The notes: generated by a model not told the origin, from the sequence alone. A stretch of 64,000 nt of DNA from Psilocybe cubensis (GCA_017499595.2 CM039006.1:2542001-2606000), one strand, 5' to 3'; shown: positions 8,891 to 51,307, counted from the stretch's first letter. Program-made: numbers and translations.

Positions 8891-11208
8891 ATGTCGTCAG
8901 TCTCTGCCTTTGTGCTCGACAATCCTGGGCTTTGTGCGCTCGCGCTATGCGGCGTTGGCGCTGTCTGGATTTACAACAAACGGGCGTCCAAGTTACCCAA
9001 CATCCCAGGGCCTCGCTCTTCTTCCTTTTTGACTGGTATAACCCCTCACCACTTGATTGTAGCTATCTCTTCTAATTCTTTTTCAGGAAATCTATTCGAT
9101 CTTGTTGCTCCTACTACGGGTCGTGACTGGGTTATTAACACCAGCAACACCTACGGCGGCGCAACCAAGTTGTCGACTCTTTTTGGTGTGAGTGGCAACT
9201 GCCCAAAGGATATTACTTACCACTAATTTTCAACATACAGGGACGGTCTCTAATGATCAATGACCAAAAGGCCTTGCATCATCTATTGGTTAAAGAGCAG
9301 GATAACTTTGAAGAATGGGAGGCTTGGACGACGTAAGTTATCAGTGGTCAGCAATAACCACAATCTGAACTCCGTTTTACAACGCATTCTCAGGACAAAC
9401 GATTTACTGTTCGGACCTGGATTGCTTTCTACAGCCGGTGCTCAGCACAAGAAGCAGCGAAGGATGCTTACACCCGCTTTCTCTGTAAAGAATTTACGAG
9501 GCATGACGCCCATGTTTGTGTCTATCGCTCGGGAGGTACGTTTCTTTCCAGTGGCAGTTTTCTACTCGGGATTCTGTCTCACCAATTTGGAAACAACTAG
9601 CTAGAGGGTGCTATCTCGGCAATGGTTGAAAAGGGCCCCAAGGAAATTGACCTTACTGCATGGTTGAGCAGGGTGGCCCTCGAAGCTATTGGACGAGGTG
9701 GAATGGGGGTCTCTTTCGGCAAGATGTCGGAACCGACAACGTTCTCCACTGCCACTAAGCAGCTTGCGTAAGTACCCCATACAAAGTGCGATATTTGATG
9801 CCCATCTACTGACACTATCTTTCCTTATTCCCTTTCTTCAGAGCCATTTTATCTGCTTTGCTTCCTATCGGTACCCTTACACCATTCTTCAAATATCTCG
9901 GCCCAGGCGAATTCCGTCGGTTCATGATCAAATTCCTTCCGTTCCCGCTTCTCAAGAGTCTGGAGGTTATTGTTAATATTATGGAGGATGAAGGAAAGAA
10001 GATGCTTCGGGCGCAGGACGCGACTCTCGCAGCTGAAGATGATTCAAGCGAGACGAAGAACATCATCGGAATTCTACGTACGATTGCTGCTCATTCTGCC
10101 GCTTAAAACAGCTCTAATCATCACCTAACAGTGAAAGCAAACCAAACATCTATCGATTCCGAGCGCATGTCCGACGAGGAGCTCATTGCGCAGACATCGT
10201 GCGTTCTCCTTTGACACTCAGAGTCCGATCCAAGAATGAACTAACGTTGCTCTATGCCCAGAACGCTCATTTTCACAGCCATGGACACAACCTCGTCTGC
10301 TATTTCCAGAGTTCTCCACCAGCTCGCTATACATCCTGAAGCTCAGGAGAAGCTACGCGCCGAGATTTCCGAGGCTTACCACAATCAAGACGATGCCATT
10401 GACTTTAACAACTTGATGGCCCTGCCCTATATGGACGCCGTCATCAAAGAGACCTTGCGAGTGTATGTTTGTCGACAGTCTTGAATCCAAAAAGTGGACA
10501 CTCACCTTCTTCTCCAGGTTCCCCCCTCTTCCTGTTGCCTTCCGTCAGTAAGTGATCTAATGCTCCTTTTTTTTGACCGGCATCTAAAGACTTGCTCAGA
10601 ACGCTTAAAGACACCGTTCTCCCACTGCTTCATCCTATCACTGGTGAAGACGGAACAATCTTGAACGAAGTACTCGTCGAAAAGGGAACCGACGTCTTTG
10701 TCAACGTTATCGGAGCAAATCATAATCCCAAGACATGGGGTGACGACGCTGGTGAATGGAAACCAGAGCGTTGGCTTTCAGAACTCCCGGAAAGCGTAAC
10801 CAAGATTCGCGACTACTCTGGCGTGTTTGCACACCAGTAAGTTTATTAAAGACCTTTAATGTCTTATCTTGTTTAATCTTGCTTTAGAATGACGTTTATG
10901 GCTGGAAACCGCTCTTGCATGTGAGTTTATTTTCATAATATTATTGCACAAATCTGAATGATTCTCGCAGTGGTTTCAACTTTGCTCTGCTAGAGATGAG
11001 TGAGTACTTATTCTTTGAACTATTGCCTGATATACTGAATCTCCGAGCAGGGGTTGTTTTGGCATTATTCCTCCAGTCCTTCGAGTTCAGTCTCCCGAAG
11101 GATAAGGATATCGTATGGAATCTTGGTCTATTGATGATCCCTGTCATCAAGGGCGCAACCTCACTGGAAAGTCAGCTACCTCTTGTTGTAAAGAAACGAG
11201 GAACTTGA
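8891..11208 (+). CDS. Cytochrome P450, CYP5150-like, multi-exon
   Basis: N-terminal anchor plus IPGP hinge, I-helix TLIFTAMDTTSSA, ExxR (KETLRV), WKPERWL and spliced heme motif FMAGNRSCIGFNFA. Family assignment is by recalled motif similarity only. Confidence 0.92.
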
Positions 11209-30900: not shown

Positions 30901-33900
30901 ATCCACAAATCACAACTCCGGATATTCCAGGCTCAGTCGGACATTGGATCTAGCCTGAATTGTCCCAAGAGTCCTGTTCGGTTATATTCTTGTTTTGACC
31001 GTCTCCAAAGCGCACTTGATGGCTGCTTAAAGCTGTCCAATCCCCAAGTTTACCCAAACTCATCATCGTCATCATATCACACAGACCATCGTGCTATATT
31101 CAGACTGCAACATGAATGTAATGTATCATGAACACCAACAATAGCAGTGATAGCGATAGCGCCTATCACCTGAAAAGGAACCTCTCACCACCTCCCACCT
31201 GCCTCCTAGCGCAACGGGCTCGGAGGTAGCACACAGCCATTTCCTGGAAATACAGCTCATTCTGAGCTTGCATCTACACTACCGGTGATTAAAGCTCGAG
31301 AATGGACCCCAGACACTGAACTATCTCCCTCAATCCCCTGCGCACAATGTACGCAGGGTGTTTTTCGCTTTTCAAATTCGAAAAGTTAAAAATGGCTGGG
31401 GATATGTATAGGGTCGTTGGTATATATTGTCACAGATGAAAATACGGCATTTAATTTAATTGAATTTTCAAATGCAATTGTATCTTATATCACTCGCTAG
31501 AACTCTGTTCTGAGCTCATTAGGATGACGATAGTGCCTACATAGTATATTCTAGCGCTAACCTTAATCATCCAACCCACTGGGTCCCAGCGCGCTTCGCG
31601 TGGCGCGCGTAGCCAACGCGTGATCTCAGGGTCTCAACGACACCCTGAGTCCAGAGAGTCCAGACCTCCCTTCAATGAAGTTCAATCAGTCGCCCACAAC
31701 TCACCGAAGCACCATGTCCACAAGTGCGCATTAATGATTACGAAGAAGGAGCACACAAATTAAATGTACAGCATCAACACATAAGAAGGCACGCTAGGCT
31801 CGCCTCCCCCACACACGTTTAAATTGGGGGTGGTCGTGGCTAACAGACACACGTAAGGCTGGGTTGATATGTCGCTGATAGCGATAGCGATAACGCGTAA
31901 TGCGAAAAATGGATAATGCGATTGGGGCTAGTAACAATTCCGCGCTAGTTCGTAGACTATGCGTCAACAAAGCGGTCTGCTGAGTCGTCGCATGACTAGT
32001 GTCTAATTGTCTGAACCTGCTGCGTTGTTCAGGGACTCATATAACTCCTCAGCATCTTACGAACCACATCTACATTCCATTAAACACAAATTGACTGGGT
32101 GTAAAGGTGTTTCTACACCTCTTTGTAAAATCTGCTCCATGATATTGATATTAAAGTCTTCCAGTCTCTATTGAATCAACTCCATAATAATCGGAAGCTG
32201 GGCGTTGGGGTTGGAGTGGCTGCCGACTGTCGGCTGTGCAATTCCTCCCATCCTCCAGAAGATCTCCTGTTTTGACGGCGAGAATGTGAACTTGGGGATG
32301 AGCAGAGATAGAACGACTTCTATGAAACAGGATTCATTTTCTTAGTGTGCATAGCTTGAAGCTGAAAATAAATTCTCACTCATTTCAAGCTGGGAAAACT
32401 TGAATCCGCTGAGAAGAGAATAGACAATGAGCAAGCAATCCCCGCCACCACCTTCCAACGACACGACTTACATGCACGCTCTACTCCCACCAATAAATGT
32501 CATCCTAGAATATACACAAGCCATTCAGATACAGAAACACAATATGCTAACATCAGCAACAAGAAAAGAGCAAATGGCGGACCCACAAATTGGAATAGAC
32601 GCCCGGGAGATGCGCACGGGCCACACTTTCCGGCAACGGCTCGAGCCAGCGCTCGGGCCTCCACTCCTCCGCGTCCGGTCCCCATATCTCAGGATCGCGG
32701 TTGCACGCCATGATACCTATGGTGACGGTGGTATTCTTCGGCACTGCGACAGCTGGGATCTCCTGTCCGTCAATGCCCTTGATGGGTTTTGATAGGGATA
32801 GCATGACGTCCTGTGTCGTGCTGCAGGTATGGTATGGTATGATATAGTTACTACGTGCCAGAATTGAACCCGTATAATGCGGGACGGATACTTACCACCT
32901 CGAGACACGGGTAACGGGCGGATGGCTATCCGTAAAATTCAACACGGCTGATTCCAAACGGAGCGTCGATAGTACTTACAGTCTCAGCGTCTCGCGGCAT
33001 ATAGCGTCGAGGTACGGCAGACCCACCAGCTCATCGTACGTTAAATCGCGACCACCTACCTCGTCGCGTGCGGTCTCTAGCTCGCTCCGTAGTTTATCCT
33101 GTACATCCGGGTGCAGCACGAGCAGGTGAAAGATCCGGGAGAGTGCGCTGGATGTGGTATCGGTCGCTGCAAATATAAATGTCCTACAGCGCCCCAAAAC
33201 GAGCGGGGGTGTAAGCTTCTTCCTGGATAAAGAAATGGTGAGATGGCGATGTGAAAATACGCACGACATTTGGCCTAGCACCTCTTCCTCTGGAAGTCGG
33301 TCCGCACTCGACGCCTTCATGTTTTCTCTAACTAAGAAAATGAAAGAAAAACATCAGGACAATAACCCATCATTTCCCGTGCAAAGCACAAGAACATACT
33401 GAGAATACTGAGCAGATCCTTCCCCTGCCCTACCTGCTTCGCAACAGCCTCGTCTCCTTCAGACAGCGCGCGTTTCTTCGATTCGAATATATCAACAGAC
33501 ACATTGTGCAGCACATATGAGATATCATGAGCATCGTGAAGAGGCTGCCATGGTATCCATTTCGCGATGATGCCTCGCATGCGCGGTGTACCGATCTTCA
33601 CGAGGTGGGGGAGCAAGTACCTAGCAGGTAGAAATATCTTCATTCCGGCAGGACTGTTGGTCAAAGATAAATAATATGCCCGCGTTCAGGGATTAGCCTC
33701 ATCTAAATAACGAACAAATGACCAGAGGATTGACGCACCCAATTCCTTTGATCGCGGTGATGTATGGATGTGGAACGGCCTTGCTGGTGAGAGGGTCGAA
33801 TGAGTATCCTAGCCCTCCTTGACCAATGAGCTCAAGGGCAGCGCGGGACATCCACTCTAAAAGGTCTATCTAGATTCAAAAAGTTAGCAATGGGGTGTTT

Positions 33901-35059
33901 TAAGTCCAGATTGAGAACTCACCTCCGTCGGTCCATTCTTTGCCTCTTTTTGCAAAGTCTCAAGAAGCTTATACATCACATTGTAGAAAACAGGGACTGA
34001 GGATGTTGTATTAGTGTGACGATTTTTTAAAGGCATGTACCTGCGAAATGACGTACTCATCTCACGCAGGTGTGCGATTGAGAAAACGGGATTGAGCATT
34101 TTTCGCTGTCTGCGATGCCGGTCCCCTATGCAGAAAATTGGTTAAAGTTATGACTTGTTTGAGTGGAGTTAATTAGATGAAAGCGCGTACATACCGAGTG
34201 TTCCAAGCAGGCCAGGTCCGAAGACTAACGTGTTGAGACTTGCAATTCTATGTTACTCGAAAGAATCTGTGAACGCGTCCGAACTCACTGAATAAACCCT
34301 TGTGTCTCCTCGAAAATGTGTTGATCCTTTCAGGAAAGTCAAGTCAAGTAAATAACTGGCTTTTAATTCAGTATCACGAGGATCAAACAAACCTTTGTAA
34401 ATATCTGTTGCAAAGCTTTGGGGTCGAAGACGTAAAGTTGGTTTTCCTATAACGCAATTGCTTCGTAAACACGATTGACCATTGACGTAAGGTAGTCGCC
34501 TACTCCAAACAAGCCTTTTATCTTGATTACACTGCCATCTATAGTCCTTTGAGCATTTCCTCGCGTATTCAGCGAAAAGAACCCTACATTTCTTGATTAT
34601 TTCATGGTGAAAACACCACGCATTGGGTCCTGCGCAAATAGACCACCTTAAAGTGTAGTATAGTATACCTGACATACCACCAAGATACGTACCCTACATA
34701 CCACCTAATTCAACAACCAACATCATATTTGTACTTTTCTCATAAGACACCGGTAAATGTGTATTCAAGTTAACCCATACCTACACCTACTATATATCAT
34801 CAATCTACATCTGAAACCTCTAATCCAAAAACAGTATTCATTGGGTATAGAATGAGCGTTCAGCTCATTTGACATCTGACGGGTCAAAATTCAAAATAGA
34901 TTTCTCACAAGACAGTGATCGTGAGAAAGGTCATGTGAGCGTCGGGACTTTGACATTTACATTTAGAAAGCTGCAATCAACTTGAACGCGAGGCTTGTAT
35001 TGAGATGAATAAAACTTGAAACATTGTAGATTTTGCATCTGAGATCTGAGAATGTGATT

Positions 35060-35910
35060 TATACATGCTAGAAAGGAGCGCGGAAATCCACATTTGGAAG
35101 GCTGAAGGTTGCATGAATATACATCTAGAAATGTTATTTGATGCCTCTTGGTGTCGGAATCAAAATGACATCTGTGAGCAGTAAATTAACCACAATAACA
35201 TCTGTGAATGAGGTTTAGTTTGCTGGAAGGGGCGTATAAATCAACATTTGGAAGGTTAAATCTTGCATAAATACAGATCTGGCAATGCTATTTGACGGTC
35301 CTCGGACTCGGAATTAAAACAGCATCTGGCAGGCTCAACATTGCATGAATACACATCTGGAAATGTTATTTGATGCCTCTCGGAGCCGGAATCAAAATGA
35401 CATCTGTGGCCAGTAAATTAACCACAATAACATCTGAGAATGAGGTATATGCTTGCTTGAAGCGGTGTGTAAATCAACATTTGGAAGGTTAAATCTTGCA
35501 TAAATACACATCTGGCAATGTTATTTGACGGTCCTCGGACTCGGAATTAAAACAGCATCTGGAAGGCTCAACATTGCATGAATACACATCTGGAAATGTT
35601 ATTTGATGCCTCTCGGAGCCGGAATCAAAATGACATCTGTGGACAGTAAATTAACCACAATAACATCTGAGAATGAGGTATATGCTTGCTTGAAGCGGTG
35701 TGTAAATCAACATTTGGAAGGTTAAATCTTGCATAAATACACATCTGACAATGTTATTTGCTGTCCCTCGGATTCAGAATCAAAACGGCATTTGTAAGGT
35801 TCAATGGGCCATGAATACACATCTTGCAATGTTATTTGACCCCCCTTGGAGACGGAAACAAAAAGAGATCTATGAGGCCATAAATCATGTTATATATAAT
35901 CTGAGAATGC
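35060..35910. repeat. Subterminal tandem array: 233-bp unit, about 3.5 copies, built from roughly 78-bp sub-repeats
   Basis: AAATCAACATTTGGAAGGTTAAATCTTGCATAAATACA starts at 35238, 35471 and 35704. ACATCTG and AATGTTATTTGA sub-motifs recur. Array ends are approximate. Confidence 0.9.
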
Positions 35911-36040
35911 CTATCAGATGCGCTCAACATTGCTGTGCCAAAATTAATTGTTAGACCTTGAACCAGCACAAATTTCCATTCGAAAGTTTGACTTGACAAT
36001 GTAGGATATGATTTGCATACACTATCTGTACTCTACTGAG

Positions 36041-39000
36041 CTATGCAGTATCAATCTGCATAGTATCATTAACATCATCAATTCCATATGTAACAACCTT
36101 GATGCCTTTTAATCTCGCCTTCAATTCTTCCCCAAGGCGAGTGAAAGAGACCATCATTAGATGTGTCTCACGTGAAAATTTCCCTCGTGGTCGGTGATCA
36201 TTGTAGATATCGCTTGCGGTCAGCATTGTTGCCGAAGTGAAAAGCTTGATCACAAATGCGCGGATGCGAGGCGGAAATACATCAGTCTTCATTGTTTCTT
36301 CAACGCTTTGAAGTTTGGGATTGGTTGATCGGATTGACAGTGTCTTCCAGAAGTAAAAGTCAAGGAGGACATCGTCTATAAGGCATCCACAATTCATGTG
36401 GCCTTCCTGAGGCGCAGCGCTATAGTCCGCACGGTAGGCCACTCCAGCTATATGGGTTTCGTTATCGCACTTCTTCACCATCGAGCTACGTTCGTGATAG
36501 CGGCACACTAGGTTGAGGTGAGAGGTCATGTGAATCCCAAGTGCAACTTGGCGGTGTGTAATGCACAGCTCAGGATGCATAAACTGAAGCATTCGTAACG
36601 CTTTACGATGCTTGACCTTCAGACTTGGGAGTTTTCCGGTTTCTAGGAACTCTTGAATAGAATTCTGAGCCCCATCTACTAAACTTTAGTGATCCATATA
36701 AGTAGAATAAAGCTGTAAAACAACGCACCACTAAGCGCCTGAAGCTCCGCACCAGTCATCCTAGTATACGCCTCCATTGCCTTTCTAAAATCACCAGCAA
36801 TTCCATCCTCTCCAAAAGCACCGGACAATGAATCTTCCCCCTCTGCCACCGAGGGAATTTTGGGGACTAGAACATCTGGAACAGATCCTGTTGGCTGATG
36901 TGCAGATTTCTCTGGCCTCTTTCGAGTGTTCAGCTGATCACGAATGGAAGACAACTCTTGCTCAATGGTACGTAGCTTTTCTTGAATATCTGCAAGATTT
37001 TGACTTGTCGCCGTCTTGAGAGAATTGGAAACAAGGGTCCTTTCCTTTCTCAAAACTTTCCGTCGATCCTCAAGGGGCTTGCGGTTCTGCTGCTCTCGAT
37101 ACGCACGTTCATGCTGGATAATTGCAGCTTGAAGTTCGCCCATCCGTGCAGTTGCTTTCTGACAAATATCATGGTTTGAATCGATAGCTTGCAAAGCACC
37201 ACGTATCTCGTCCATGGTTCTTTGTTTTGGGCTGCATATATCAGCCTCTAGCTCAGCTGTCTTGCAGTTAACCGAAGCAAGGAACTGGGAAATTTGCTCA
37301 AGCTCTGCCGTAATCTGTTTCTGCAATGGTGGAAGCGACCCGGAAAGTGGGGGCGAGATAAGAGACATCATGGCTAAATCAAAGATTTTCTTAGCTTATA
37401 GTTATAATGAGAATTGTAAATGCGAACCAGTTTGATGTTCTCTGTTGTCTGAGACAGGTATAGCCTTTAAATCCCTCATCTGTATTCGGTAGTATCCATC
37501 AGATGATAGGTTACACTTCAAGTCTTTGGATTACATTACCTTCTTTGTCTTTCTTTCAGATATATTAAGCTCCTTGCTACCAGTTACAATTTTATCGAGG
37601 TCTTGTAAGTCAGTGTCTTTGAATAGTTCCATTGCCTCAATAAAAGAATAGTCAATATAAAGTTGGAACCGCTAGTGTGGAACTGAAATTACCTCCTTAT
37701 TATGGTCCTCTAACCGATTTGATTGGGTTTCAGCATCGTCAACTGAGGTCGTTGGCACGGTCTGGCAATGAGTAAGAGTTAGATTTAACATATAGACATA
37801 TAGATTTGTGCAAAATGGCGTTCGGGACTCCAGATTTCGCAGTGGCATCATATCACATTCTAGAATGTTAAATTGTCAAACACTGAGTATAACTCAGCAC
37901 TAAACCCAGTGAGATGCGATTTGGCATCTCAAAATGGAGATTTGGTTATATCTCCTCAGAATCAAGACACGCAATTTGGCACTGCAGATGTAGAATCCCC
38001 AAAAACAATATGCACGTACCATAATTGCATCGTCATTTACGTTCCCAGTATTCTGCACCACACATAAGCCAATATTTGACTTTGCACCGGTGCATATCAT
38101 ACCTTATCACTTGTAGTCTCTACTACGTTATGTTTCTGAGAGTTCCCATTGATCATCACATTTGAACATGGCGCTTCCTATCACGGAGAAGAGTTGTATT
38201 AGGTTCAAGTTCATGCAATTGAGAAATAAGATGATAAAACACACCATTGGGTTTGACGTGTCTGTGTCAATTTCCATCATCCGGGAACCGTGATCCGGTG
38301 CTGTACTGGTAGAATTATGAACACCAGAAGAAGGAAAAGCTGCTGCGCTGTCAGCAGGGGTGCTAATAGGTGAATTGGCAGCCGGAGATGACGTTGAAGA
38401 GGGCCTAGGATCCATGGAATCATTTGAAGATGTTTCACCAGTAGGAGCAAAATTCGGAGCGGATAATGTAGTAGAAAGGGTTTGAGCAGTAGAAATCGAA
38501 GTCGGCAATTCCACAGCAGGCAATTTGAGGGCAGAAATGGAGGCAGACAGGAGTGCAGAAACGGGTGAGCCAGAAGCAAGACTGGGATCAGGCAATGCCG
38601 CAGCAGCAAAGTGAGTGACAGGTGAATTCTGCAGTATTGGATCAATCATGTCTTGCTGATCCAGCACGATTGCATTGCCCAGGCTATCACCCTAACAAAA
38701 ACAATACGTAGATTAGTTTTTAGGTCTTTAAAATATCCAGTAACACACCTTTGTGGTGTTGAGAGCTGGAATCTCTTCCATTTGTACGTTAACTTGCTCT
38801 CGCTTCACTTTCTTTCCACGGGGACCGTCAAATCTTGTCTCATAGGTCTCTCGGAGCCTCTTAACCTTCTCTTGAGCATCATGCAAGCGCTCTTGATCCT
38901 GCGCCGACAGTCCCTTAGGTGGCGCTGCCTTGCGCAAAGGCTGTTTTTTGGACTTTGAGGGTAGCAAGGACTGCATTAGCTCCTCGCATTCCTTCTCTGC

Positions 39001-39161
39001 CGCAACTATAGACAATTTGGAAATCAAAACAGACATTATAAACTGCAAATATCTTACCTAGCTCGGCTCTCTGCACCTCCGCATCGAGGTAGGAGAAATC
39101 TGCATTGTATTAGACCAATATCATCGATAGCGCCCAATGACTTACCAAACTCTGTTTGCAT
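36041..39161 (-). CDS. Transposon cargo ORF-A: uncharacterised multi-exon protein with Ser/Pro-rich and coiled-coil regions
   Basis: ATG at 39161 gives MQTEF|DFSYLDAEVQRAEL|VAAEKECEELMQ through canonical GT-AG joins. Large exons match ORFs 38728-39048, 38128-38667, 36679-37371 (heptad-rich) and 36041-36592 (HMNCGC..DFYFWK). The internal small exons were not fully resolved. Confidence 0.7.
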
Positions 39162-39419
39162 TGTACGTTCAAACCTCCAAAAATGACAATATAAGATGTG
39201 GAATTGTTCAAGCGTCGTCAAATTCTACCAGGTCTGTATCAAACAATTTGAAAAGTCACTCAATGTACATTTCAAAATGTCATTTTATGCTGTGGTGTAG
39301 AAAATATAGCATTGAAGAATGTAAATTACATACCAACAGGATGTCGGCTCAGCCCATGTGAGATGTCTTGGAATGTGTAATTCCCAATTCCCAAACTGGA
39401 TGCACCAGTAAAGCACACA

Positions 39420-39830
39420 TTCCAGTCCGTTTAGTCGCATCAGGCTGCGTTGACTCGCATCAGATCGCATCCCAATCTCATATATGGTCCAAGCGGAATT
39501 CACACTTTCCAGTCTGTTTAGTCACATCAGGTTGCATTGAGTCGCATCAGGTCGGATTTGCATGAGGTTGCGTTGAATTGCATGAGGTCGTATCCCGATC
39601 TCATACATGGTCCAAGCGGAATTTCAGGTAGTTGAAGCGAAGGCCAGCCACCAAGTACAAGATTGGATAGCCCTTACCCACCGGGTCCGCTTTAACTTCC
39701 ACCTTGCATCTCTTCCCCCCTTTCCACCACGAGGTCATGTGGGTCAAGAATATATAGCCCTTACCCACCGCGTCTGCTTTAACTTCCATCTTGCATATCT
39801 TTCCCTCTTTCCACCGCAAGGCCGTGTGGG
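39420..39830. repeat. Short imperfect direct repeats in the divergent intergenic region between cargo ORF-A and ORF-B
   Basis: CCAGTCyGTTTAGTCrCATCAGGyTGC occurs twice (~39422, ~39509), ATGGTCCAAGCGGAATT twice, and ATAGCCCTTACCCACCG..TTTAACTTCCAyCTTGCAT twice about 87 bp apart. Confidence 0.75.
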
Positions 39831-39854
39831 TCACCGTTTAGTTTTACTTAGGAG

Positions 39855-40740
39855 ATGTCTTCTCAAGGTAAGGTTCCTATCTCCTCAGTCTTTTTGTTAC
39901 TGCTTACTTATTTCTATTGTCAGACTCTGATAAAGGTCAGCTCGTGTAGACCGTCTCACTATGAAGTATTGAACTGACAGCTTATGTATGTAGATGTGCC
40001 TTGCATTGAATGTCAATGTAAGGACTGCCAGTGTCATTGTCATTGTTCTGGTGCAACTGGAGATGAGCTTCCACCACCCGATGAGAGGTGGTATAGCGTA
40101 GTAGTTGGACGGTCTCCTGGCGTTGTCCAGGGACAGTAAGTCTTCTGTTTAACTTCTTGATTCTGAATGCTTATCTTGACTACAGGGACCATGCAGAGCG
40201 TAACTGGAGGGGTGTATCTGGAGGTGCTGCTTTTTACTGTCCAGATAGGCCTAGTGCAGAGCAGCATTTTGTCTCTGCCTTGCATCGTGGCGAAGCTGTT
40301 CATGTCATTCCTGAGGTTCGGATTAGACTTGGTAGTCAAGACCGTGCCACGCTTCCCGGATTCCGTGTGCATGACCCTTGTAAGTTTTCTAATCTTTCTG
40401 CTTCATATTTTAAATTATTTACTCCTTCCAATTAGATAGTCCTGAGAACGCAACTTGGGTTGTTGTTTCAGTGGGGCGAGAGCCCGGGATCTACCTTATT
40501 GACTCCAGGTGTGTTTCAATCACTCTTTGTTAGTCCCGGTTCTCAAATAATGTATACAGCTATTCTGGATATGGTCTTACCCTTACCTCCAACGTGAACG
40601 GGGTTAGTGGCGGCCATGTCATTAAATTTAAAAGCAGGTCTGCCGCCGTAGAGGAGTTTGAACGCATGTTGTCGGTGTCATTGATTGTCCGTGTTGTTAC
40701 CGAAGTTAGAGCAGTACTTATGTCTGATGGTGTGGAGTAA
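39855..40740 (+). CDS. Transposon cargo ORF-B: 204-aa protein with a Cys/His-rich N-terminus and two RNase H1 N-terminal-like (hybrid-binding/Cauli_VI-like) domains
   Basis: Six exons (39855-39867, 39924-39935, 39994-40135, 40186-40379, 40436-40508, 40560-40740; 615 nt). Motifs: CIECQCKDCQCHCHC; WYSVVVGRSPGVVQG..NWRGVSGGAAFYCPDRPSAEQHF; WVVVSVGREPGIYL..NVNGVSGGHVIKFKSRSAAVEEF. Confidence 0.8.
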
Positions 40741-41778
40741 ACTATACATTCCTATGTAGTATGGATTGAAAAATTACATTGCTTATGAGTCTGGAAATGT
40801 GTTAATCAACTGCGCTTTGATGTTTAAGAGTGAAGCTGCTTCAACGTCAAGCTTTGTGAAGGCATCGGCTGTTTCCACAAATCAGGTAGCGTGAGAATCT
40901 TGACTTAGTCTCACCTGTGTGTTCACGTTAATGCTTCAAATGCTTCATTGATTGCTCAATCGTTCAACACAGACGTAATTCATCATCCCGAATGAGTCTA
41001 CCCAGACATAAAGTAGGTTTTGGCTACCTGATTAAAGAAACCCATGGTCTATTTATCAGCCATTTGATGCACAGTACTATGACGAGAGATTTCGGAACTA
41101 GAAAAAGCAGATTGTGAAAAGTCGAGTTTCTGACTTGAATGAGCAATCATATCACTGTAGAAGATGTTCTTAGGTTTGTGTTTTCCAAGTCAAGATGGTA
41201 GTTTAGTCACGTTAATAGAAAAGACTTTGAAAAACTCGACCTGATATTACTGTGAACACTTTCTCTATATATCTAGTCTTGTCAGACAATGTGCACAATT
41301 GTATCACTGTATAAAATGACTTGACACTCATGTTCTCTGAGTCAAGATAGTGGTTTAGTAGCGTTGATAGAAAATTCTTTAAAAAACTTGACCCCATTCC
41401 ATTATGAACACTTTCTCTATACACCTAGGTCTATACAGCAGTTTCGTCAACAGTAACAATGTTGAAATAATGTGTCACATTACATAGCTGTCTACAATGT
41501 CTGTTACAAGAGACACAATCCAATATATGTGTATGTGATGTATATGATCTAGTACTAGTCATTTGTATCATAGGAGCTACAGAATTTCGTGTTTAGTACT
41601 GAATGACAAGTCGCATACACAACTGGCAGTCGCATATCTGATGTATCTGAGGTCGCATACGGTCGGGCCGCATACCAGGTCACATACACCGCATTTATTC
41701 GTGCTATCACCTCGCATTTATTCATACCATCACAATCTTACATTCAAGCTTACCTTTACAAACATTGTCCTTTTCTTA

Positions 41779-42537
41779 ATGGCCCCCCAAAAACATAGCA
41801 ATCAACGTGTTGGTGCCGATGGAAAAACAAAGCATCAAAGATATTTAGAAAAGTATAACGCTATTCTCACTGTCTTCAGTGCTTACTGACAAACTTTTAA
41901 AGGAATCGCTCGAAAATATATGCTAACAATGCTCGACGAAATCGTGAACGCCGTCAAAGACAGTAAGACTCTTAATTTGTACACTACACATGACACATAC
42001 CTAAAGGCTCTTAGAAAGATGGAATCTGCTTGTACTCCCTCCCCTTCTTCAACTGTATCCCTTCCTGAAGTCCCTGCCGACGTCTCAGAAACTCGAAATG
42101 TCCGTATACAGACCCATATTTCCCTCATCCATTCGTCTTCAATGCATCGACCCCATCCTCGGATGCAAATTGCTCGTCTCAGCACACCAGAATTAGACAA
42201 TGAGGAGTTGATGCATTTCAAGAATCGCGAAAAGTCACTGGAACTGCTAAATCGCACTGTCGAGATACAACAAGAAATCACACTATGGGAGGAACTAATG
42301 AGCGACAAGTGGTCTTATTATTATGGTTGGATTATCAACTTTGATTTTAAGGGTACCACATACGAGCAAGTGACGAGCGAGGTGATGGAAAGAGTAAGCA
42401 AGTTGCTCCATGAGTGGTGTGCACTTGTGACAGACTCGGTCCCACAGGATTTCGATTACAAGACTGCAATCAAGCATATACAGGAGCTTACCATTGCCTT
42501 AAACTTCATGCAGAAGTTGAGCGACAATTCTGATTAG
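41779..42537 (+). CDS. Transposon cargo ORF-C: three-exon uncharacterised protein with a basic N-terminal helix
   Basis: Spliced MAPQKHSNQRVGADGKTKHQRYLEK|NRSKIYANNARRNRERRQRQ|KMESACTPSPSS... joins the 41920-42537 ORF through two short GT-AG introns. Confidence 0.7.
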
Positions 42538-43259
42538 TATTGTAGCTATTTTTCAATCCAAAACTTGGCAGTCGTCTTGTCTCTATGTGCATAGCTTCTT
42601 CATTTGAACTTGTCCATGTGGTATAGTGGATAAGCGAAACTTTGAGTTAATTTGCAATGCAAATCTCTTGGATCCAATTCTTAATGCCTCCATGTTTAGC
42701 TTAAAAGGGCAGCACATTCAATTGCTGTAGCCAGTATAATCAGCCATGGAAATGATTTGTAGCAATCCCATGTGCAACCAAGTTCTGTGTCAAACACTGA
42801 TCACAAAGACAGTATATATCTACACCGATGTATGTGTCCAGTCTCACGATAATCTACGTTTGGCTTATCTATTTCATTCATATAGACGCTTCAGGGACTT
42901 CCATTGATCTGGAGTCTGCGATCAATGACTGGTACCCCCGTCTTGGCCGATGAAAAACACTTGTTTCACTTGATACAGACACCGAGCATTCCCTTTTTTC
43001 GACTTGTCAAGGAATCTTCAGGAATGGCAGAGAAAGTGACGCATTTTTGGACCCTTTTTAATCCACATGAGCCCCTTTGTGATCCCGATTTACACATTGT
43101 GTTACGACGGAAGGATGTTCCGGAGCAGGCTTGCATAGGGTTGGATCGTTTGACTACACTAGTTAAGCTCAAGGACAGCTGGGTGTTTTAGATATGTAGA
43201 TAACTAGCAAAACAACTATTTACGCCCACTAAAAGAGCTGACAAATATGTACACAATAT

Positions 43260-44527
43260 CTAGCTAGGGAGTAAACCATGAAGCTCCTGATACCGAGCCA
43301 ACTGTTGAGAAAGCAAACGCTGGCTGTCACGCTCTGCTGCTATTGCATGCTCCATCTCCTCTGCGTGGCGACGAGATTCCTCTAACTGCTGCTGGAGATT
43401 AACATTGTCCTGGATACGAGCTTGGATCAAATTCCGGGTGATGGAAGAAAATTGAGTCCCAATATTGCCGGCTTGAGCTGCTGCATCTCTTCGAAGACGC
43501 GGAGAAGCGTAGCTAATTGCGCCAGAGCGAGCAGTGGCATGTTGTGCTCCAATAAACAGCCAGCAACCGGTTTGTTTGGACAGGTCTTCACACTGGAAGC
43601 AGTATCAGTCATATAATCCCACAAACAAGCTAAAACTGACCTTTTCAACGATTGCATTGATGGAATTTGTGAACTGCTTTACCAGTCGAGTGTTTTCGGA
43701 TATGGGTGACGGCAAACTGTGGCCTCGAACAATTTCTATGGTAGATATTGGGTTGGTTAGAGTAGAGAGTAATAAAGGATTTTGGATGTTTAATACTCAC
43801 GATATACCTCAGTCCCACGAAGTGCGCCCTGCACATATCCATGGTACGGATTCTGAGCACTTGTTCTAGGTGGCTTAGGGTGCGAAGGAGTAGTACGAGT
43901 TCGCAATGTTAACTGGGCCAAACTACTTGAGGTCATTGATGAAATTGACGCAGTTTCCTGGAGCAACGACGAGCTTGTTGGGGTTCCGGGCGCGGAAATA
44001 GATGGAAACGTTGTGCTTGGTACCGTTGCAGAAGCACTGGAGGTAGGGTGATCTTCTGGACCTGTCAGTGGTGCAGAAATTTCAGGCCTCTCATCGTTTT
44101 CAGAAGCACTTGCAGAACCACGTTCCATCGCATCCACACTAGGTTCACGCAGACTCTATATTAGAGTAGACAATAATGTTCAATGTCAAAACCGGAGTTC
44201 ATAGTATTCTCTTACCTGTAAAGCCTGTTGTTCCGCAATATACTGCTGCCCCTTTTTGGTATGGATGCACTGCGACCGCAAAGGCCTTCCCGGACATCTT
44301 TTACACCTAGCATCCTGACGTGAAGCCTTGAAAAATGTGCTTCAGATGACACGTCATAACACAGCATTGAATGCAGACGACATACAGTGATAATGGGCCC
44401 CTTTTTAGTACCTCCATTGCGTTTCTAAAGATCTGTAAGACACTGAAAATTCTGGATAGTAACTTCTCACCTTGTGTGGTGTAGACTCTACCAGTGTAGA
44501 GGCCTTTGCCGCCCGCTGTTTTGCCAT
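43260..44527 (-). CDS. Transposon cargo ORF-D: CxxC..CxH knuckle, Ser/Thr/Pro linker, divergent MADS-box-like segment and coiled coil
   Basis: Spliced MAKQRAAKASTLVESTPHK|KRNGGTKKGPIIT|ASRQDARCKRCPGRPLRSQCIHTKKG...|...ISENTRLVKQFTNSINAIVEK|CEDLSKQTGCWLFIGAQHATARSGAISYASPRL...QELHGLLPS*. All introns are canonical. Confidence 0.75.
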
Positions 44528-45327
44528 TAATGTGGGTGGTAGGACAAGAGGAACAACTTGAAATTTGAAGACGCTACTGGAAATGTATATACATTCACAC
44601 ATTGATGAGTAATATCCTATCTTAATGGTCCATTTTACATCAACAGATGTCAAATTGAATTAGGCTAATATACATTGTACCCAGATACAAAGAGTAATTA
44701 TCATCTAGAAATATAAATCCTATGTAGAATGGCAAAACAAGGCTTGACATCGAGCAATGCAATGATTGATTAAGTCAGTTTGACATTTCTAAGTCCAATT
44801 CCCACAGCTCCCACGGCCTTGTGACCGTCGGAGTTTTAACAAATGACTGATAAAATGACTACCAATTCTCATTTGTTTAGGCTGTTTATGGCTTTACTAA
44901 CAATTTCTCCAATATATAAATGATTAATACAATACATATATCACTTTTTCAAAGGTGCACAGTACCTTGGGCAGTTTGTGCGCCGTTTTCAGTCACATCA
45001 GGGTACGAGGTAGGGGTGTCACATTTATGTGACCCGCGAGTCACAAAGGTCAACTTTTGACAATGTTTGCAGTCTGCACACCGGGGCATAAGCTGCTAAG
45101 GTATGAAAGGTGCATGGTTCAATAGTGTATGGTACTTGGTATGATTTTGTGTAAAAAATCAATGTCACAGCCAAATGATTATAAAGTAATATCTACCTGT
45201 ATGATTAAACAAAGTTATCTTGGCGTGGTATACTGGTATTTAACAAACCTAGCACTAATGGCTCTGTTATGTACACGTGTATTCTTTCTTCGCAACACAT
45301 CTCTTGATTCACTTTGTGCATGCTCCA

Positions 45328-48300
45328 ATGAGCAGAACTCCTTCTCCAGTAATAGTCTATGCACCATTGCCGGAATCTCCCACACAGATAGACTATACTC
45401 CATTGCCAGACATCCAGGGCTACGATATTAGCACTCCCCAGCGCAAAAGGAGAGTTGCTAAAGGAGCACGTCAAGGCAACACCAAAAAAAAAAGGCATGG
45501 CAATTTGAGCAATGCTTCAATTGAGGATCTCTTGGATGACAATGAGCCATCTGATATGGCTATGATGGATGTTGAGCAAGGACCTGGTGAATCTGAAGCC
45601 AACATGAATGATGATTCCAAGGATTTTCTGCAATTTGCTGAGGCAGTAGAGTGGCAGAAGAATGCCCTATCTTTCAGTTAACCGAGCGGATGTTTGTTGT
45701 GAGTGGCTGGAATGCAGCCAAAAGAGAGTCAAATGTGAGTATTATGTGAATATATTTGAAGAACTGGCTGACATCATTGTATTCAGAAATTCTGGTACCA
45801 CGCTATGCGGGATAATACCCAGGACACAGTTTCAGTTGTTTGTCTGTGTCCACTTAACCGGTCGCAAGCATGTTATCATGTGAGGTACCTGACCGAAGAA
45901 CTTCCGCACAATGCGACAGTAAACGAAGTATCTCTATCTGGTACGTGTGGCAGTGACCTTCATAGATTTGTAGTAAACTAATAATTGTGTATTTCAGCCT
46001 ATCAAGAGGCACGAGCATTTCTTTTCTACAGAAACGAAGGTGTCATGGATAACTTTTATACCAATATTTTTTCAATCCCAACTTCCACACGATTTCCAAC
46101 CATTAAGAATCGTAGCATTGTTGAGCATTATGGAGACGACTCTGGTAATGGGACATGGAAATGTAGCAGGGATCAAGGCGCAACATCATGCTCCCACATT
46201 GTACAAGCCCGTCACGCACTGCAGAAGTATATTCATGGAGACTGGAATGCACAAGATGAAACCATTGATAGTAGTGTAGCTACAGATGGTGTTCAATTTG
46301 GTGGTACGCTTGTATTTGAATGGTTCAAGTCCAGAGTATTTCTAACTAATGAAGTAGGAGTTCCATTACGACAGGTTTCTGGAGTTGCTGAATCAATTTC
46401 GTATAAGCGAATTCCACCTCCCTGTTGGTCCCAAATTGGGGCAGACCCTCCTGCACCACCCAGAGTTATTTTCAACTCACCGCCATCATCTATTTCTCTA
46501 GGTGACAATGGCACATGTATCTGCTCCAACCCTAGGGAATGTTTTGACCCATTTAGGCCGTCAATCGACAAAGAGTGTACTGTTTATACACTTACCGGTG
46601 CTTCTAAGGCAGTAATCTCACTGCAACAATGTCTAAAATGCTCACACCGTTTTATTGGGCCAGAATGCAGTGATCTGGGTTTATTCAATTTCAATAACAC
46701 CAGCCTCTTTGCCCATGATCTGTTGGACGACTACACAAGTGCATTTTCCACCTCGGAAACTCCATTTATATCCTGGGTTAACACTGTGTCACGGCGCTAT
46801 CAACTTCGTGGGTCTGACGTCCCCTTTGCAAGCGACAAGCTCTTTCGTGCTGCTTGGTTCTCCTATTCACGGCTATTGCTATTAGAAAATGACATGACCT
46901 GTTTAGAATGTGGCCCAAATCCCAAGGCAACAATATGGGATGGAGTAACTGTAGCATTCAGTCGTCGAATGCTTCTACCTTCGCTTCATCCACCGACGTT
47001 AACAGGTCCCTCTTCAATTGAGAGGCCAGAGGTTCATCCCACATCTAATCTGCACGCTATTCCAAACCGAAATATTCGTATACTTATCCGATTCATTCTC
47101 AAGGGCCCACCACTCACTACACTGTCAACCGAAGCAGAGGTCACAGAGGCTAGTCCACATTTTGAGAGAAACAAGAAAATTGTAGAACGCCTATCAAAAG
47201 TCTCGGAACTAGTCAACAAGCTTTCCAATATTAACACACATCTAGGTAATCTGTTTAATAGTCAGTTTGGACTCTCCGCTGTTTTCAGAAAGCAATCCAT
47301 CCCTGAAGTTTACATTAAATTCTTTCTCCAGGTATTTTTTTTTTATTCTGCATAATTTTCACACCAGTACTCATGTCCTACAGGTTGCTGCGGATGAGTC
47401 AATCCTACAAGCCTTACCATATCCTTCAATCTTGAGCCTGAGGCGATTTCTACGAGATCCTAGTGCACAGCATATTACCTGGTTGCGATATACACCTTTC
47501 ATTCAACGTGTCATCCAACATGAAGTGCGCTTCGGGAATATTTCAGCAGATACCTTAGCAGTATGTGAGTGGCTCTACGTGCGGGCTATGGCTGTGTTTA
47601 GCATCATCAAAGTGCATGATGGACCGGCCAAAAATGATGACACTGTCAATTCAAATATTGAGCAGGAAGATTGGCTTAAGGTACGTATATAGTACTCAAT
47701 CATATCTTCATGTGGTGTGGTATACTTATGCCATAATAGACAGGCTGCCACTATGCAATGGCACAGATCCGTGAACGGCCAAAATATCCCAACCTCCCAT
47801 ATGAAGCCGGAAATGATCTTGTTGGCGCCAATGAAGATGAGGACACTTGTCATAAGTACTATTCAACATATTCCAAGAAGCGCCTCACCGGTGGAATCAT
47901 GTGTGTCTGGTGCACACACAGTGTTTGCTACGGTTTCCATTGCATCCGCGCAGCCGAAGGCCGCAATGATGTATTTTCAGCAATATACACACGGTGGAAA
48001 CAGGCTCCGGAGGTCATCGTCTACGATTTTGCTTGCGCACTTCAACCCTACTGCATGTCACGCGAGCCAGACTTCTTCAAAAACACGCGTTTTGTGATCG
48101 ACATTTTTCATTCCAGTGAACACAAATGTGGGGAGGCCTGTTTCTTGGCCACATACTGCCAGGAAAACCCAGACCTTCTACGATTGAACTCAAGTGCAGC
48201 GGAATGTGGCAACAGTGGTATTTCCAAGATCAGGAAAGGGGTTAGTTACATGACTCAAGACCGTGCTGTCATGTATATGAAGGTTTTTTTTTCATTATGG

Positions 48301-48348
48301 AATCGACAGCAGATCAGAAAAATGGAAAGGACTGGGATTAGGAACTAA
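45328..48348 (+). CDS. KDZ/Zisupton-like transposase (SWIM-like fingers, CxC cluster, catalytic region); possible frameshift near 45650
   Basis: SWIM-like CLCPLNRSQACYH; CxC4-like CLKC..GPECSDLGLFNFNNTSLFAHDLL; CLECGPNPKATIWDGVT; CHKYY..TGGIMCVWCTHSVCYGF..EG..VIVYDFAC..FVIDIFHSSEHKC..NSSAAECGN. This is the motif order of KDZ/HMGXB3-type transposases. Confidence 0.88.
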
Positions 48349-51307
48349 TGTACTGTCTTTACATATTTAAATGTGCATGGAAATTTGTACATGAGTCGTA
48401 ATTTCTCATTTGTAGGCGTCAATTTATGATCAACAAGGATATTCCACTGGCATTGGTTAAAACCTGTAATTACTGACCCCAAGGATGTAGATTGTACAGT
48501 GTTTACCAAAGTGTTGATTTGGCCTCGAGAGATGAAGATCTGTGCCAATTTCTCACATGCATACCGGGCAATCCAGCATTCAAAGTATGAGCATTCAAAA
48601 CACATCTGTAAATACGAATTCTTAGTTATTTGAAACGGTGCTGCAGATATAGACTCACAGTATGTAGATTGTGGTACATTCTCATAGTGTGAATTTAGCA
48701 TTCAGAGATGAAGATCCGTGCAAAATTTTTGCGCACAGATACAATCCAGTTTGCAAGGTACGAGTATCCAAATCACATCTGCAAATCCAAACTGTGTGCT
48801 ATTCAACACATCTGCGGCTCTAAATGCAATATACATGCCAGGATGTCAATTCAAAGAGTCTCACAGGGTTGGCATTGCTGTAGTTGGAACGCTCAAAATA
48901 CATTTGGTGATGTCGATTATAATTGCTGGACAATCAACATTAATTAAACACATTCTGAGACGCTGGCCGCTCAGAGAGGAGATTTCTATGCAGGGGAGCC
49001 ATTTAGCCCACATGTTGGGTAGCGATTACTATGGGATGTCGGGTACATTATATCTACTTTTACATATAGTCGTTAACCCGGGTCCTGTAAACTGACGGAG
49101 GACACCTATGAAAAGTCACATTTGTATAATATCATTTACAATGGCAATCAAATGTACCTGTCCATATAGACGTAGATGGCGGCCCAGGAATGTTCTCAAG
49201 ACTCCATCTATCCTTCAGAGTCGTAGCTATCTTCCAGACAACAACAAGGAGGACGGATACAACGACCGTTTGAAGTGAAATCATGGCGGTAGGTCGAAGT
49301 CGATGGCAAGAGTCACGGTGTCAGTTCGATGCCTTTTATATGTCGTTAGACAGGCTTGCATGGGAACATCATGGACGGTGCTGCTCTTCGGCGCGCTGAT
49401 ATCATGGGCTTTACATATCGAGGGCCTTCTTGAGCTATGTATAGAACAAGCGTTACAAAAAAGTCGTCAGACGTGATTGCGATAGGCCGCAGGACATCAT
49501 AATGGCGGGTAGCTCTAACTGTCACTGTCTGAACTCTATGCACGAAATGAAGCATACGGCTTTGAGCTGAGCAGGTGTAGTTGAAAGCCTCATCCCCTGT
49601 TAATGATAGGCGTCAGCATGGAGGCGGATGTAATTTACTGTACAGGAGTGCGCGTGTCTTGGCTTAGACTTCATTACGATCCATTAGCCGTGATAGACTC
49701 AAAGATACTAGTGCTTACCACCGCAACGTCGATGTAGCTATGAAGTTAAAACTGCGCTTCCAAAATGATTGTAATTGTCGTGCCATTAGTACCGGATTAC
49801 CCAAGCAAAACACTTTCAGCCATCCGCAGGAAGAGGTCCAGAGACAGGATTTGAGAGTCGGAGATTGGAATAGCTCAGTTGCGCTGATGTCCTAGGATAA
49901 TGAGCATGGTCAGCGTTTGACCTCAATCGCCTCATCGAAATATCAATACCAGGTCAATGAATTATTAGACGAAATCACTTACATTATCCCGTGCGTCGTG
50001 TCACCGGAACAGGCGGTCATGTATTCTCTTTCACGGGACCTCTAAGAGGACAATTACTCCAAGAGAAATAGAACTAGTGGCAACCAGTACGTAGCCAATT
50101 TTCCCAAATACCCCGAATCAACCGGGATCCTCCTCCTTCACCGTCGAACTTGAAGTTGATCGAAGACATCGTTGCCGACCGTCCTGTTAGGCGACATGCA
50201 TGATCCACTGCGTCTCTTGTATCATCTCGGACATCTAGGATATTCACCTCCATCACACAATCTGACTAGCAACAATTAAATTACAGTCGGCAATTTCTCG
50301 CTCTTGTGCCCGTTACGGACACGTATCGTTTATTTATAGCAGGACATCAGCTTCGAACACGACATATTTGAAGCAAAGGGGCTCGTGGCTAATGTTATGA
50401 CTTTTTATGCATTCTATATCTAGGCTATGGAGTGGCCCATGGAGCTAGCTCTATATTTTACCTCGACTCAGCGATGAAACCTTCATTGGGATCATCGGCA
50501 CTCCTTGGCAGCCTACATATCTTAAGTTCTGTAAAGAAGGGTGTTTGGACCAAGAGGGTCACTTGGGTAGTAACAGCATATTTACAAATGAAAACGGATA
50601 TTCTTCGCATGGTAAATGTACGCAATGCAATGGTGCAATGTGTCGACCTGCGCAGGCTGCTTGCGATTGGCCAAACAGATTTAAATAGACCGGCATACCT
50701 ACCCGCAGTTTCCAAGTTGTGGTCAACACGACCGGCCGTAATAGGTATTAAAACATTGGGAGTTATGAGCTCCCATACCCATCCATACTTATAGTCAAAC
50801 CTGTGAGCTCCTAAAAGAGCATTATAAAGTTTCTGTATCTGCAGGCAAAAATCTTCTGACCTTTGCTACTTGCGCCAGTGTGCACCGAGTAGGTCCATCA
50901 TCTGTGAAGATCCGACCCATATATGTTTTTGGAGCTCTCGGGATGACATTGGAAGTCGCCTACTCGATTTCGCTGTCCGCAGAAGCAAAGTCTATTACAC
51001 CCGTGTCCGATTGCATTGATGGTTATTTTTAGCAAGGCCTAAAGAGAGTGAGCTCGAACTTCGATCCCGTTTCCAGAGCCCTGCGCTCTCCAACGATGGT
51101 GTCATGCAAAGAGCGAGTGGACACGGGAGAATTTTGTCATGGAGTTTTTGTAAATCACTTTCAATATTCCGCGCGTTCGCCGTCTCGCTCGCGTGATACA
51201 CTACATCTTCACACTCTTGACCGGGTTTTTACCGCTTCGAAGTTATAAAAGCTGCACAAACGGGTTATGTTCTCGATAGGTTAACTCAGAAACTCACAAG
51301 TCTTCCA

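Follow-up and report, generated by a model that had tools for sequence, protein, structure and literature searches.

A 64,000-nucleotide (nt) stretch of Psilocybe cubensis DNA (GCA_017499595.2 CM039006.1:2542001-2606000; called here the window, and numbered from its first letter) contains an element of 14,447 base pairs (bp) at positions 34633-49079, within a cytochrome P450 gene. This element is very probably a recently active copy of a cut-and-paste transposon of the KDZ superfamily, which moves as one unit and carries, in addition to a transposase, genes that have been kept by its lineage and whose products are putative cofactors. KDZ elements are abundant in mushrooms and barely characterised. 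A base-resolved, full-length copy provides a natural system for KDZ transposition, as public strains include alleles with and without the insertion along with several fresh insertions at other sites. The companion genes define two or three unannotated protein families, one of which has hundreds of members in Agaricales and a confidently predicted new fold, and they offer a concrete, testable answer for the role of the "extra" open reading frames (ORFs) of KDZ elements. The insertion also disrupts the P450 gene in some P. cubensis strains and not in others.

The limits of the element are set by an 8-bp target-site duplication (TSD). The left copy of GGGTCCTG lies at 34625-34632, within codons of P450 exon 2, and the right copy lies at 49080-49087; both are found in the window sequence and in contigs from other sequencing runs. 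Cutting out 34633-49087, which joins 34632 to 49088, restores an open exon on the minus strand that reads GVLRQFTGPNAWCFHHEIIKK and has canonical splice sites on both sides. The start of the P450 gene (49088-49284, minus strand) comprises exon 1, from the ATG at 49284 to 49158, a 52-nt GT-AG intron, and the beginning of exon 2, which runs from 49105 downwards and in the empty form ends at 34588. The interrupted, downstream part of the gene occupies 32553-34624 on the same strand. Here the next exon contains ..YGSVIKIKG.., and an ORF of the same host gene at 32979-33353 (minus strand) matches the Pfam p450 family (expect value, E, 1e-18). The exon and intron limits were read by eye from the splice sites. 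Together, the rebuilt open exon and the p450 match further down the same strand show that the element interrupts the coding part of exon 2 in a cytochrome P450 gene. By itself, the pair of 8-mers is within chance expectation, since GGGTCCTG occurs three times in the window versus 1.32 times expected, and at least three copies were present in 15 of 100 shuffled sequences.

Evidence that the element moves comes from four public sequencing runs, which were aligned to positions 33000-50700 as contigs (X2, X5, and X6) or as raw reads (X12). A joint from 34624 to 49080, which skips 14,455 bp and leaves eight letters that fit either side, is present in one 886-nt X6 contig, which extends 240 and 646 letters to either side of it, and in 20 X12 reads with 16 different starts. 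Other samples under the same species label therefore contain the exact empty site, in which the 8-mer stands once. Both P450 junctions are crossed by contigs of X2 and X5, indicating that these samples have the same insertion. The sequence-only reading of this DNA had named an empty P450 allele and junction-spanning sequence as checks of its proposal, and both were found. In X2, X5, and X6 the exact element ends, 34633 and 49079, also abut other flanks. These represent three further sites with the perfect 8-bp duplications GCAATGTG, ACTTTTGT, and AACTGCTA, so that all four resolved insertions, including that in the window, have a perfect 8-bp TSD. A fifth left flank is seen in X12; its matching right flank was not among the matches listed. 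In each of the three contig runs, the full length of the element is represented by contig pieces, which differ from the window at 0-52 positions each, and the depth in X2 is 31-34 over the element versus 15-17 over the flanks. Copies were counted through the run contigs rather than across a whole genome; the window itself contains only this one. The empty site, the further insertions with their own TSDs, and the complete contig coverage together indicate that the 14,447 bp move whole, that they have done so recently, and that all of the genes are included. The earlier description of a multi-gene mobile unit, with boundaries fixed to within 1 bp and a P450 exon 2 that is rebuilt in frame, is therefore upheld by the sequence, the empty-site joint, and the other copies, which enclose the same content.

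Inside the element are five genes in the order -,+,+,-,+, named here genes 1 to 4 and the transposase gene. The splice models agree with deposited proteins that are 98-100% identical, and the order is the one that the sequence-only reading had given. The transposase gene is predicted to have five exons on the plus strand (45328-45698, 45787-45940, 45998-47331, 47384-47680, and 47740-48348), separated by GT-AG introns of 88, 57, 52, and 59 nt, and the exons join in frame. It carries both CxC4 and KDZ domains: an ORF at 45985-47355 matches CxC4 (PF18717) with an E of 1.6e-43, and an ORF at 47740-48348 matches the KDZ transposase family (PF18758) with an E of 4.6e-7 (30.2 bits versus a cutoff of 26.6). 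These Pfam matches bear out the KDZ identity that had been suggested.

The fold of KDZ transposases is RNase H-like and of the DDE type (Iyer 2014, as cited in PMC5751038). Given an RNase H-like catalytic core, the mechanism of transposition would be cut-and-paste, with 8-bp staggered cuts. Zisupton and Dileera elements generate 8-bp TSDs, and Kyakuja elements generate 7-bp TSDs, have 5'-CA..TG-3' ends, and lack terminal inverted repeats (TIRs) (PMC12730594). Zisupton is the only group whose nature as a transposon, including its TIRs and TSDs, is well characterised (Kojima 2025, PMC12730594); its canonical architecture is KDZ plus CxC4 plus SWIM (bioRxiv 10.1101/2024.08.15.608186), and Zisupton elements are reported to be abundant in Agaricomycetes (PMC5751038). 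KDZ elements of Cryptococcus span 6.4-10.9 kilobases (kb), make 8-bp TSDs, in some cases lack TIRs, and carry additional ORFs that contain no known domain (bioRxiv 10.1101/2024.08.15.608186). In addition, the TET genes that some transposons carry have been argued to serve escape from silencing (Kojima 2025, PMC12730594).

Judged from domain architecture and TSD length, the present element can be assigned to a kind already known, the KDZ superfamily and, within it, probably the Zisupton type with CxC4 plus KDZ. It has the features of the superfamily (a KDZ domain, a CxC cluster in the same protein, and a discrete unit that makes TSDs) and, of those of Zisupton, KDZ with CxC4 and an 8-bp TSD, the latter being also a feature of Dileera. 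It does not look like Kyakuja, given that its TSD is 8 bp and its ends are CGCAAA/TAACCC rather than CA..TG, and neither a TET/JBP gene, which would make it a "TET+" transposon, nor the tyrosine-recombinase captain gene that marks one end of a Starship was found. What is new is a larger, TET-less member of the group with a base-resolved natural polymorphism.

The closest comparisons are with KDZx1 of C. deneoformans and KDZ1-3 of C. neoformans, which are likewise large KDZ elements that insert into genes, make 8-bp TSDs, and carry extra ORFs (bioRxiv 10.1101/2024.08.15.608186). KDZx1 also shares the KDZ plus CxC4 architecture and has no detectable TIRs, whereas KDZ1-3 carry CxC1 rather than CxC4 and group with Dileera (bioRxiv 10.1101/2024.08.15.608186). 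Unlike the Cryptococcus elements, the P. cubensis element is 14.4 kb long, has four extra genes, has no SWIM domain that was found, and resides in an Agaricales host; the extra ORFs of the two groups are compared here by their descriptions. It resembles the Zisupton superfamily, first described in fish (PMC12730594), in its 8-bp TSD, KDZ-type transposase, and cut-and-paste mode; however, canonical Zisupton has clear TIRs, and the present element has degenerate ones together with a multi-gene accessory module. The TET+ Kyakuja and Zisupton elements of Agaricomycotina are similar in that they are mushroom KDZ elements with extra genes believed to serve the element (PMC12730594). They differ in that the present element has no TET/JBP, and the 7-bp TSD, CA..TG ends, and lack of TIRs of Kyakuja are unmatched (PMC12730594).

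Whether the extra genes belong to the transposon lineage can be judged from related loci. Eighteen metagenome loci (11 shorter than 4 kb, three of 4-6 kb, and four longer than 8 kb) were fetched by means of the conserved domain of gene 1 and searched with all proteins of the element. A relative of gene 4, including its knuckle and conserved block, lies upstream of the gene 1 domain and on the same strand in three of the four loci longer than 8 kb (L009, L013, and L016). In L009, CxC4 (3619-2283) and KDZ (1876-1295) lie on the minus strand, and the gene 4 relative (4471-5507) and the gene 1 domain (7310-7738) lie on the plus strand. L013 has CxC4 at 1390-87 on the minus strand, at the edge of the stretch, followed by the gene 4 relative (2430-3928) and the gene 1 domain (10001-10582) on the plus strand. 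L016 begins at gene 4 and has no transposase within the stretch; its gene 4 relative (333-1903) and gene 1 domain (10001-10483) are again on the plus strand. Pfam searches of L009 and L013 returned CxC4 (E of 8e-48 and 7e-41, respectively) plus KDZ. The layout of these two loci, with the transposase on the minus strand and gene 4, then gene 1, on the plus strand, is that of the window element in flipped orientation. Their transposases are 43-61% identical to that of the window over the main segments, and their gene 1 domains are 25-35% identical.

A tandem motif like that of gene 2, reading ..FYAVTVG(R/K).PGVY.. and then ..W(H/Y)S(V/I)T(V/I)GTQPGLYPG, is present between the gene 4 and gene 1 relatives of L016 (E 2e-5, plus strand) and L013 (E 0.026, minus strand, the arrangement seen in the window). 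Relatives of genes 4 and 1 also occur with neighbouring locus tags on one 49-kb contig of Gymnopilus dilepis, and P. cubensis itself has a second gene 4/gene 1 pair, seven locus tags apart. The same order and orientation beside transposases of 43-61% identity indicate that the transposon lineage has kept gene 4, gene 1, and probably also gene 2, which were thus not picked up at random. The sequence-only reading had called the extra genes "cargo". This term holds insofar as the genes travel with the element, but the related loci suggest that they are better termed a lineage-conserved accessory module.

Gene 1 (36041-39161, minus strand) corresponds to the deposited 788-amino-acid (aa) model P0001. 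Its product has a basic, disordered, low-complexity N-terminal third, a coiled coil, and a conserved C-terminal domain of about 170 aa, encoded by the exon at 36044-36679. Because a number of relatives have no counterpart to the part before about residue 364-403, the N-terminal 363 aa may be the product of a separate gene. Among cluster representatives at 50% identity, 219 relatives of the domain are found at E<=1e-3 and 90 at E<=1e-10, in proteins that vary in length from 113 to 1307 aa. Of 20 relatives that were looked up, 16 have an organism name, and the genera are Galerina, Gymnopilus, Crepidotus, Psilocybe, Candolleomyces, Coprinellus, Coprinopsis, Mycena, Laccaria, and Tricholoma; all 16 hosts are Agaricales. 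The family is thus large and so far found only in this order. An alignment of 51 sequences has invariant C59, G79, C97, C99, K112, and R140, and H62, D72, G98, L105, and D157 are nearly so; the resulting C-x2-H ... C-G-C pattern suggests a zinc site. AlphaFold models the domain with high confidence (predicted local distance difference test, pLDDT, 92.7; predicted template modelling score, pTM, 0.86) as mainly helical. No match in the PDB was obtained by fold search or by searching PDB sequences with a profile, the latter giving coiled-coil noise only, and the ESM Atlas returned scores of 0.86 or less and no family. A full-text search with four locus tags of the family retrieved no paper; Iyer 2014 and the supplements of Kojima 2025 may contain earlier notice of the companion genes.

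Gene 4 (43260-44527, minus strand; deposited 329-aa protein P0002) encodes a CxxCPGRPLRSQCxHT knuckle, a disordered linker, a conserved block that reads ..EKCEDLS..TGCWLFIGAQH.TAR..ISYASPRL, and a long coiled coil. Besides one relative in Gymnopilus dilepis, there are three P. cubensis paralogues, with 51-65% identity over the last exon. The block had been called "MADS-like" from the sequence, but this label failed every profile test. SRF-TF (PF00319) matched none of five full-length family members at E<=1 and none of six ORFs from relatives at E<=10, and a gene 4 profile run against PDB sequences gave no MADS match and only coiled-coil noise. The AlphaFold model, which was built from five sequences, is poor (pLDDT 59.4 overall; 54-73 in the conserved block, which is helical), and a Foldseek search with it likewise returned coiled-coil noise only. 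The sole positive is a weak one from the ESM Atlas, in which four of the seven structural neighbours listed for residues 160-329 are SRF-TF clusters, with template modelling (TM) scores of 0.33-0.42 that lie below the bar of the tool. On the strength of these modelled neighbours a MADS-like block is kept as a lead, although a rather improbable one.

Gene 2 is predicted to encode 200 aa in five exons on the plus strand (39855-39867, 39994-40135, 40186-40379, 40436-40508, and 40560-40740). The protein has a Cys-rich N-terminus and two tandem (W/F)Y.V..GR.PG...GVSG repeats, each of which is split by an intron; searched as these intron-split pieces, the half-domains matched nothing in Pfam or the PDB. 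The repeat motif is reminiscent of the hybrid-binding domain of RNase H1 and caulimoviruses (PF01693), and a clearer version of it, FYAVTVG(R/K).PGVY, is seen in the L016 and L013 relatives; the half-domain searches gave the earlier label "RNA/hybrid-binding" no profile support. The region directly upstream of gene 2, 39667-39833, consists of 1.9 copies of an 87-bp unit (87% alike), which give rise to a spurious ORF of 114 aa. Gene 3 is a single exon at 41920-42537 on the plus strand and encodes 205 aa, with position 41929 as the start of the deposited model. No relative was found other than a 98% identical copy on another contig of the same species. A comparison with PDB sequences yielded no meaningful match, and the ORFs at the same position in L013 and L016 show no likeness to it (E of 1.4 and 4.1). 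By these comparisons gene 3 is an orphan and a variable part of the element.

Overall, nothing in Pfam above the curated cutoffs was found for the accessory proteins, which were searched as nine exon pieces, five gene 2 pieces, and full-length deposited proteins, together with nine long gene 1 relatives and 16 ORFs of the related loci. TET/JBP (PF12851) had no match in any ORF or deposited protein tested, with a very divergent PE-type enzyme in gene 3 less strictly covered, and the earlier statement that no TET/JBP can be recognised in the element stands. Such an enzyme is further disfavoured because the gene 1 domain is helical rather than a beta-helix and genes 2-4 are too small or are coiled coils.

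The ends of the element read CGCAAA... and ...TAACCC. The left terminus (34633-34705, plus strand) and the right terminus (49005-49079, minus strand), at whose outermost letters the other copies also begin and end, form a degenerate inverted repeat. Its best part is a 26-nt stretch, offset by 22-47 from each tip, in which 21 of 26 letters are identical, a score that was reached by four of 500 shuffles. The subterminal regions are marked by the short motif ACATCTG. There are 22 copies in the window versus 10.95 +/- 3.27 expected, a number reached by none of 100 shuffles, and 15 of the 22 are subterminal and on the plus strand: 12 at 34807-35747, within a left array that extends to 35871 and whose part from 35091 onwards is made up of 3.4 tandem copies of a 233-bp unit with a 78-bp sub-period, and three at 48602-48814, within right subterminal repeats at 48482-48814. 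A comparable arrangement is found in L009, where tandem arrays of 66-bp and 33-bp units, partly inverted relative to each other, lie just downstream of the gene 1 relative, at 7933-8640 and 9476-9864. These arrays are rich in CCATCTG and GGTACCATAT, and they hold 11 of the 13 CCATCTG copies of the locus, when about 0.6 per strand would be expected from length alone.

In the mechanism proposed here, the transposase would cut the target with an 8-bp stagger and join the ends of the element there. The accessory proteins would act on the element itself as sequence-specific, multimeric DNA-binding cofactors, with the products of genes 4 and 1 binding the (A/C)CATCTG arrays near the ends and thereby helping to assemble or to target the transposase. 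The Cys/His clusters, basic disordered parts, and long coiled coils of the accessory proteins would fit such cofactors, and the end arrays would fit their binding sites. Proteins that are encoded by an element and recognise short, repeated motifs near its ends are known from En/Spm (CACTA), with TnpA beside TnpD, from Harbinger, with its Myb-like protein, and from VANDAL, with VANC. These systems are functional analogies only, since they belong to different superfamilies and have no sequence relation to the present genes. That genes 4 and 1 encode transposition cofactors, active in end recognition or transpososome assembly in the manner of TnpA or the Harbinger Myb-like protein, is possible rather than probable. 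A fuller version of the proposal envisages a four-gene "machine" in an Agaricales lineage of Zisupton type, in which the transposase would work with genes 4, 2, and 1. The gene 4 product would combine a zinc knuckle and a coiled coil with a possibly MADS-like block that binds DNA as a dimer, that of gene 2 would have tandem repeats of hybrid-binding type, and that of gene 1 would join a coiled coil to a zinc-site domain whose fold is missing from the PDB. These genes would encode undescribed proteins that recognise (A/C)CATCTG arrays, are needed for transposition or anti-silencing, and constitute an independent TnpA/VANC-like stand-in for TET/JBP. As a whole this version is doubtful, if conceivable.

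A number of observations weigh against the picture of an active KDZ transposon with a conserved set of cofactors. The TIRs are weak and degenerate, and no match to SWIM was found in six ORFs scanned from the transposase region, a search in which domains split between exons could be missed. Ten of the 12 ACATCTG copies at the left end lie inside one tandem array and so are not independent events, and no comparable enrichment of the motif is seen in the L013 and L016 stretches. Pfam and PDB profile searches matched none of the accessory proteins to a DNA-binding family. Nor do the related loci conform throughout. None of the 18 has a relative of gene 3; the gene 2 relative of L016 is on the opposite relative strand from that of the window; L005, an 8.1-kb locus whose gene 1 domain is preceded by about 7 kb of sequence, has no gene 4 relative and no transposase; and in L017 a KDZ gene (4041-4443) lies downstream of the gene 1 relative (33-554), at a distance of about 3.5 kb, and the two are convergent, unlike the arrangement in the window, L009, and L013. 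Finally, the window copy of the transposase gene has two extra bases in exon 1, at 45648-45649, so that its coding sequence is 2765 nt long and closes at codon 117.

This last observation gives some weight to the reading that the window copy is a dead, non-autonomous one that was mobilised in trans, a possibility that falls somewhat short of an even chance. All of the contig depth in X2, X5, and X6 lacks the two letters, as do 10 of 11 X12 reads; once they are removed, the frame stays open over 920 aa, to a stop at 48346-48348. Thus, sibling copies encode an intact transposase, on which the window copy may rely if the frameshift disables it. However, the P450 insertion is also present in X2 and X5, whose collapsed contigs do not have the two letters, so that the difference is private to the window assembly and may be an assembly error. 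The window copy therefore has either a private +2 frameshift or an error of assembly. Even as it stands, an 800-aa frame from the ATG at 45690 retains both CxC4 and KDZ. Consequently, the claim that the element is "complete" holds for its 14,447 bp and both of its ends but is qualified for the transposase frame of this copy. A more radical view, in which there is no transposon insertion and the interval represents an assembly artefact or some other structural variant flanked by an 8-mer, could draw on the fact that the 8-mer repeat alone is not significant. Its probability is close to nil in the face of an exact empty site, three further insertions with their own 8-bp duplications and identical ends, the independence of the runs, and the KDZ transposase inside.

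For the accessory genes, the choice lies between cofactors of transposition, the reading preferred here, and two other roles. The genes might, as the sequence-only reading had suggested, constitute a system that counters silencing or modulates transcription, here in place of TET/JBP, for example by keeping the motif arrays of the element unmethylated, as VANC does. In favour of this are the arrays of short motifs in non-coding, subterminal DNA and the retention of three conserved extra genes in an element in which TET/JBP is not found, as well as the motif of gene 2 that is reminiscent of RNA/DNA-hybrid-binding domains; an argument by analogy comes from the proposal by Kojima (PMC12730594) that transposon TET genes serve escape from silencing. 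Yet no domain associated with chromatin, methylation, or RNA silencing was returned by any profile or fold search, and such a role is considered rather unlikely. Very unlikely is the idea that the extra genes are mere passengers, of host or foreign origin, which were picked up by one ancestral copy and do nothing for the element. Gene 3, without a relative outside near-identical copies in the same species, might be of this kind, and the gene 1 domain does occur in many proteins of varied length, with no Pfam domain, and hence no KDZ, in any of the nine long ones tested. On the other hand, the constant order and orientation of the gene 4 and gene 1 relatives beside CxC4-KDZ transposases, their neighbouring locus tags in Gymnopilus dilepis, and the multiple copies of both families in P. 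cubensis are as expected if the genes are borne by the element. For genes 1, 2, and 4, the passenger reading is already largely refuted.

Some parts of the element and its surroundings have features of their own. Between the divergent gene 4 and transposase genes, a 345-bp piece (44876-45220) has raised depth (54 versus 32 in X2; about 41 versus about 14 in X12) and, in X2, X5, and X12, loose ends at either edge. It also occurs elsewhere in other genomes, within flanks that are less similar. The foreign flanks are identical in these three runs, and the preceding one resembles the window sequence at lower identity. This piece is probably shared with a diverged sister family, as its conserved regulatory region. 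In X6 only, element contigs break at 37144-37146 and at 45853-45862, and the foreign letters at the two breaks are reverse complements of each other. The breaks look like a rearrangement or like one small element that has inserted twice, in opposite orientations. They do not reflect a simple inversion of 37145-45860, for which the loose ends at each break would have to match the reverse complement of the window sequence at the other; they do not.

The guanine-plus-cytosine content per kb (window 34001-49000) is 0.37-0.46 in the element, a little under the 0.46-0.49 of the P450 flanks. In these flanks, 18-25 X12 reads each diverge into unlike sequence at 33416-33457 and at 50494, and many single-letter differences are common to X5, X6, and X12. 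The P450 flanks carry a second haplotype or structural variants.

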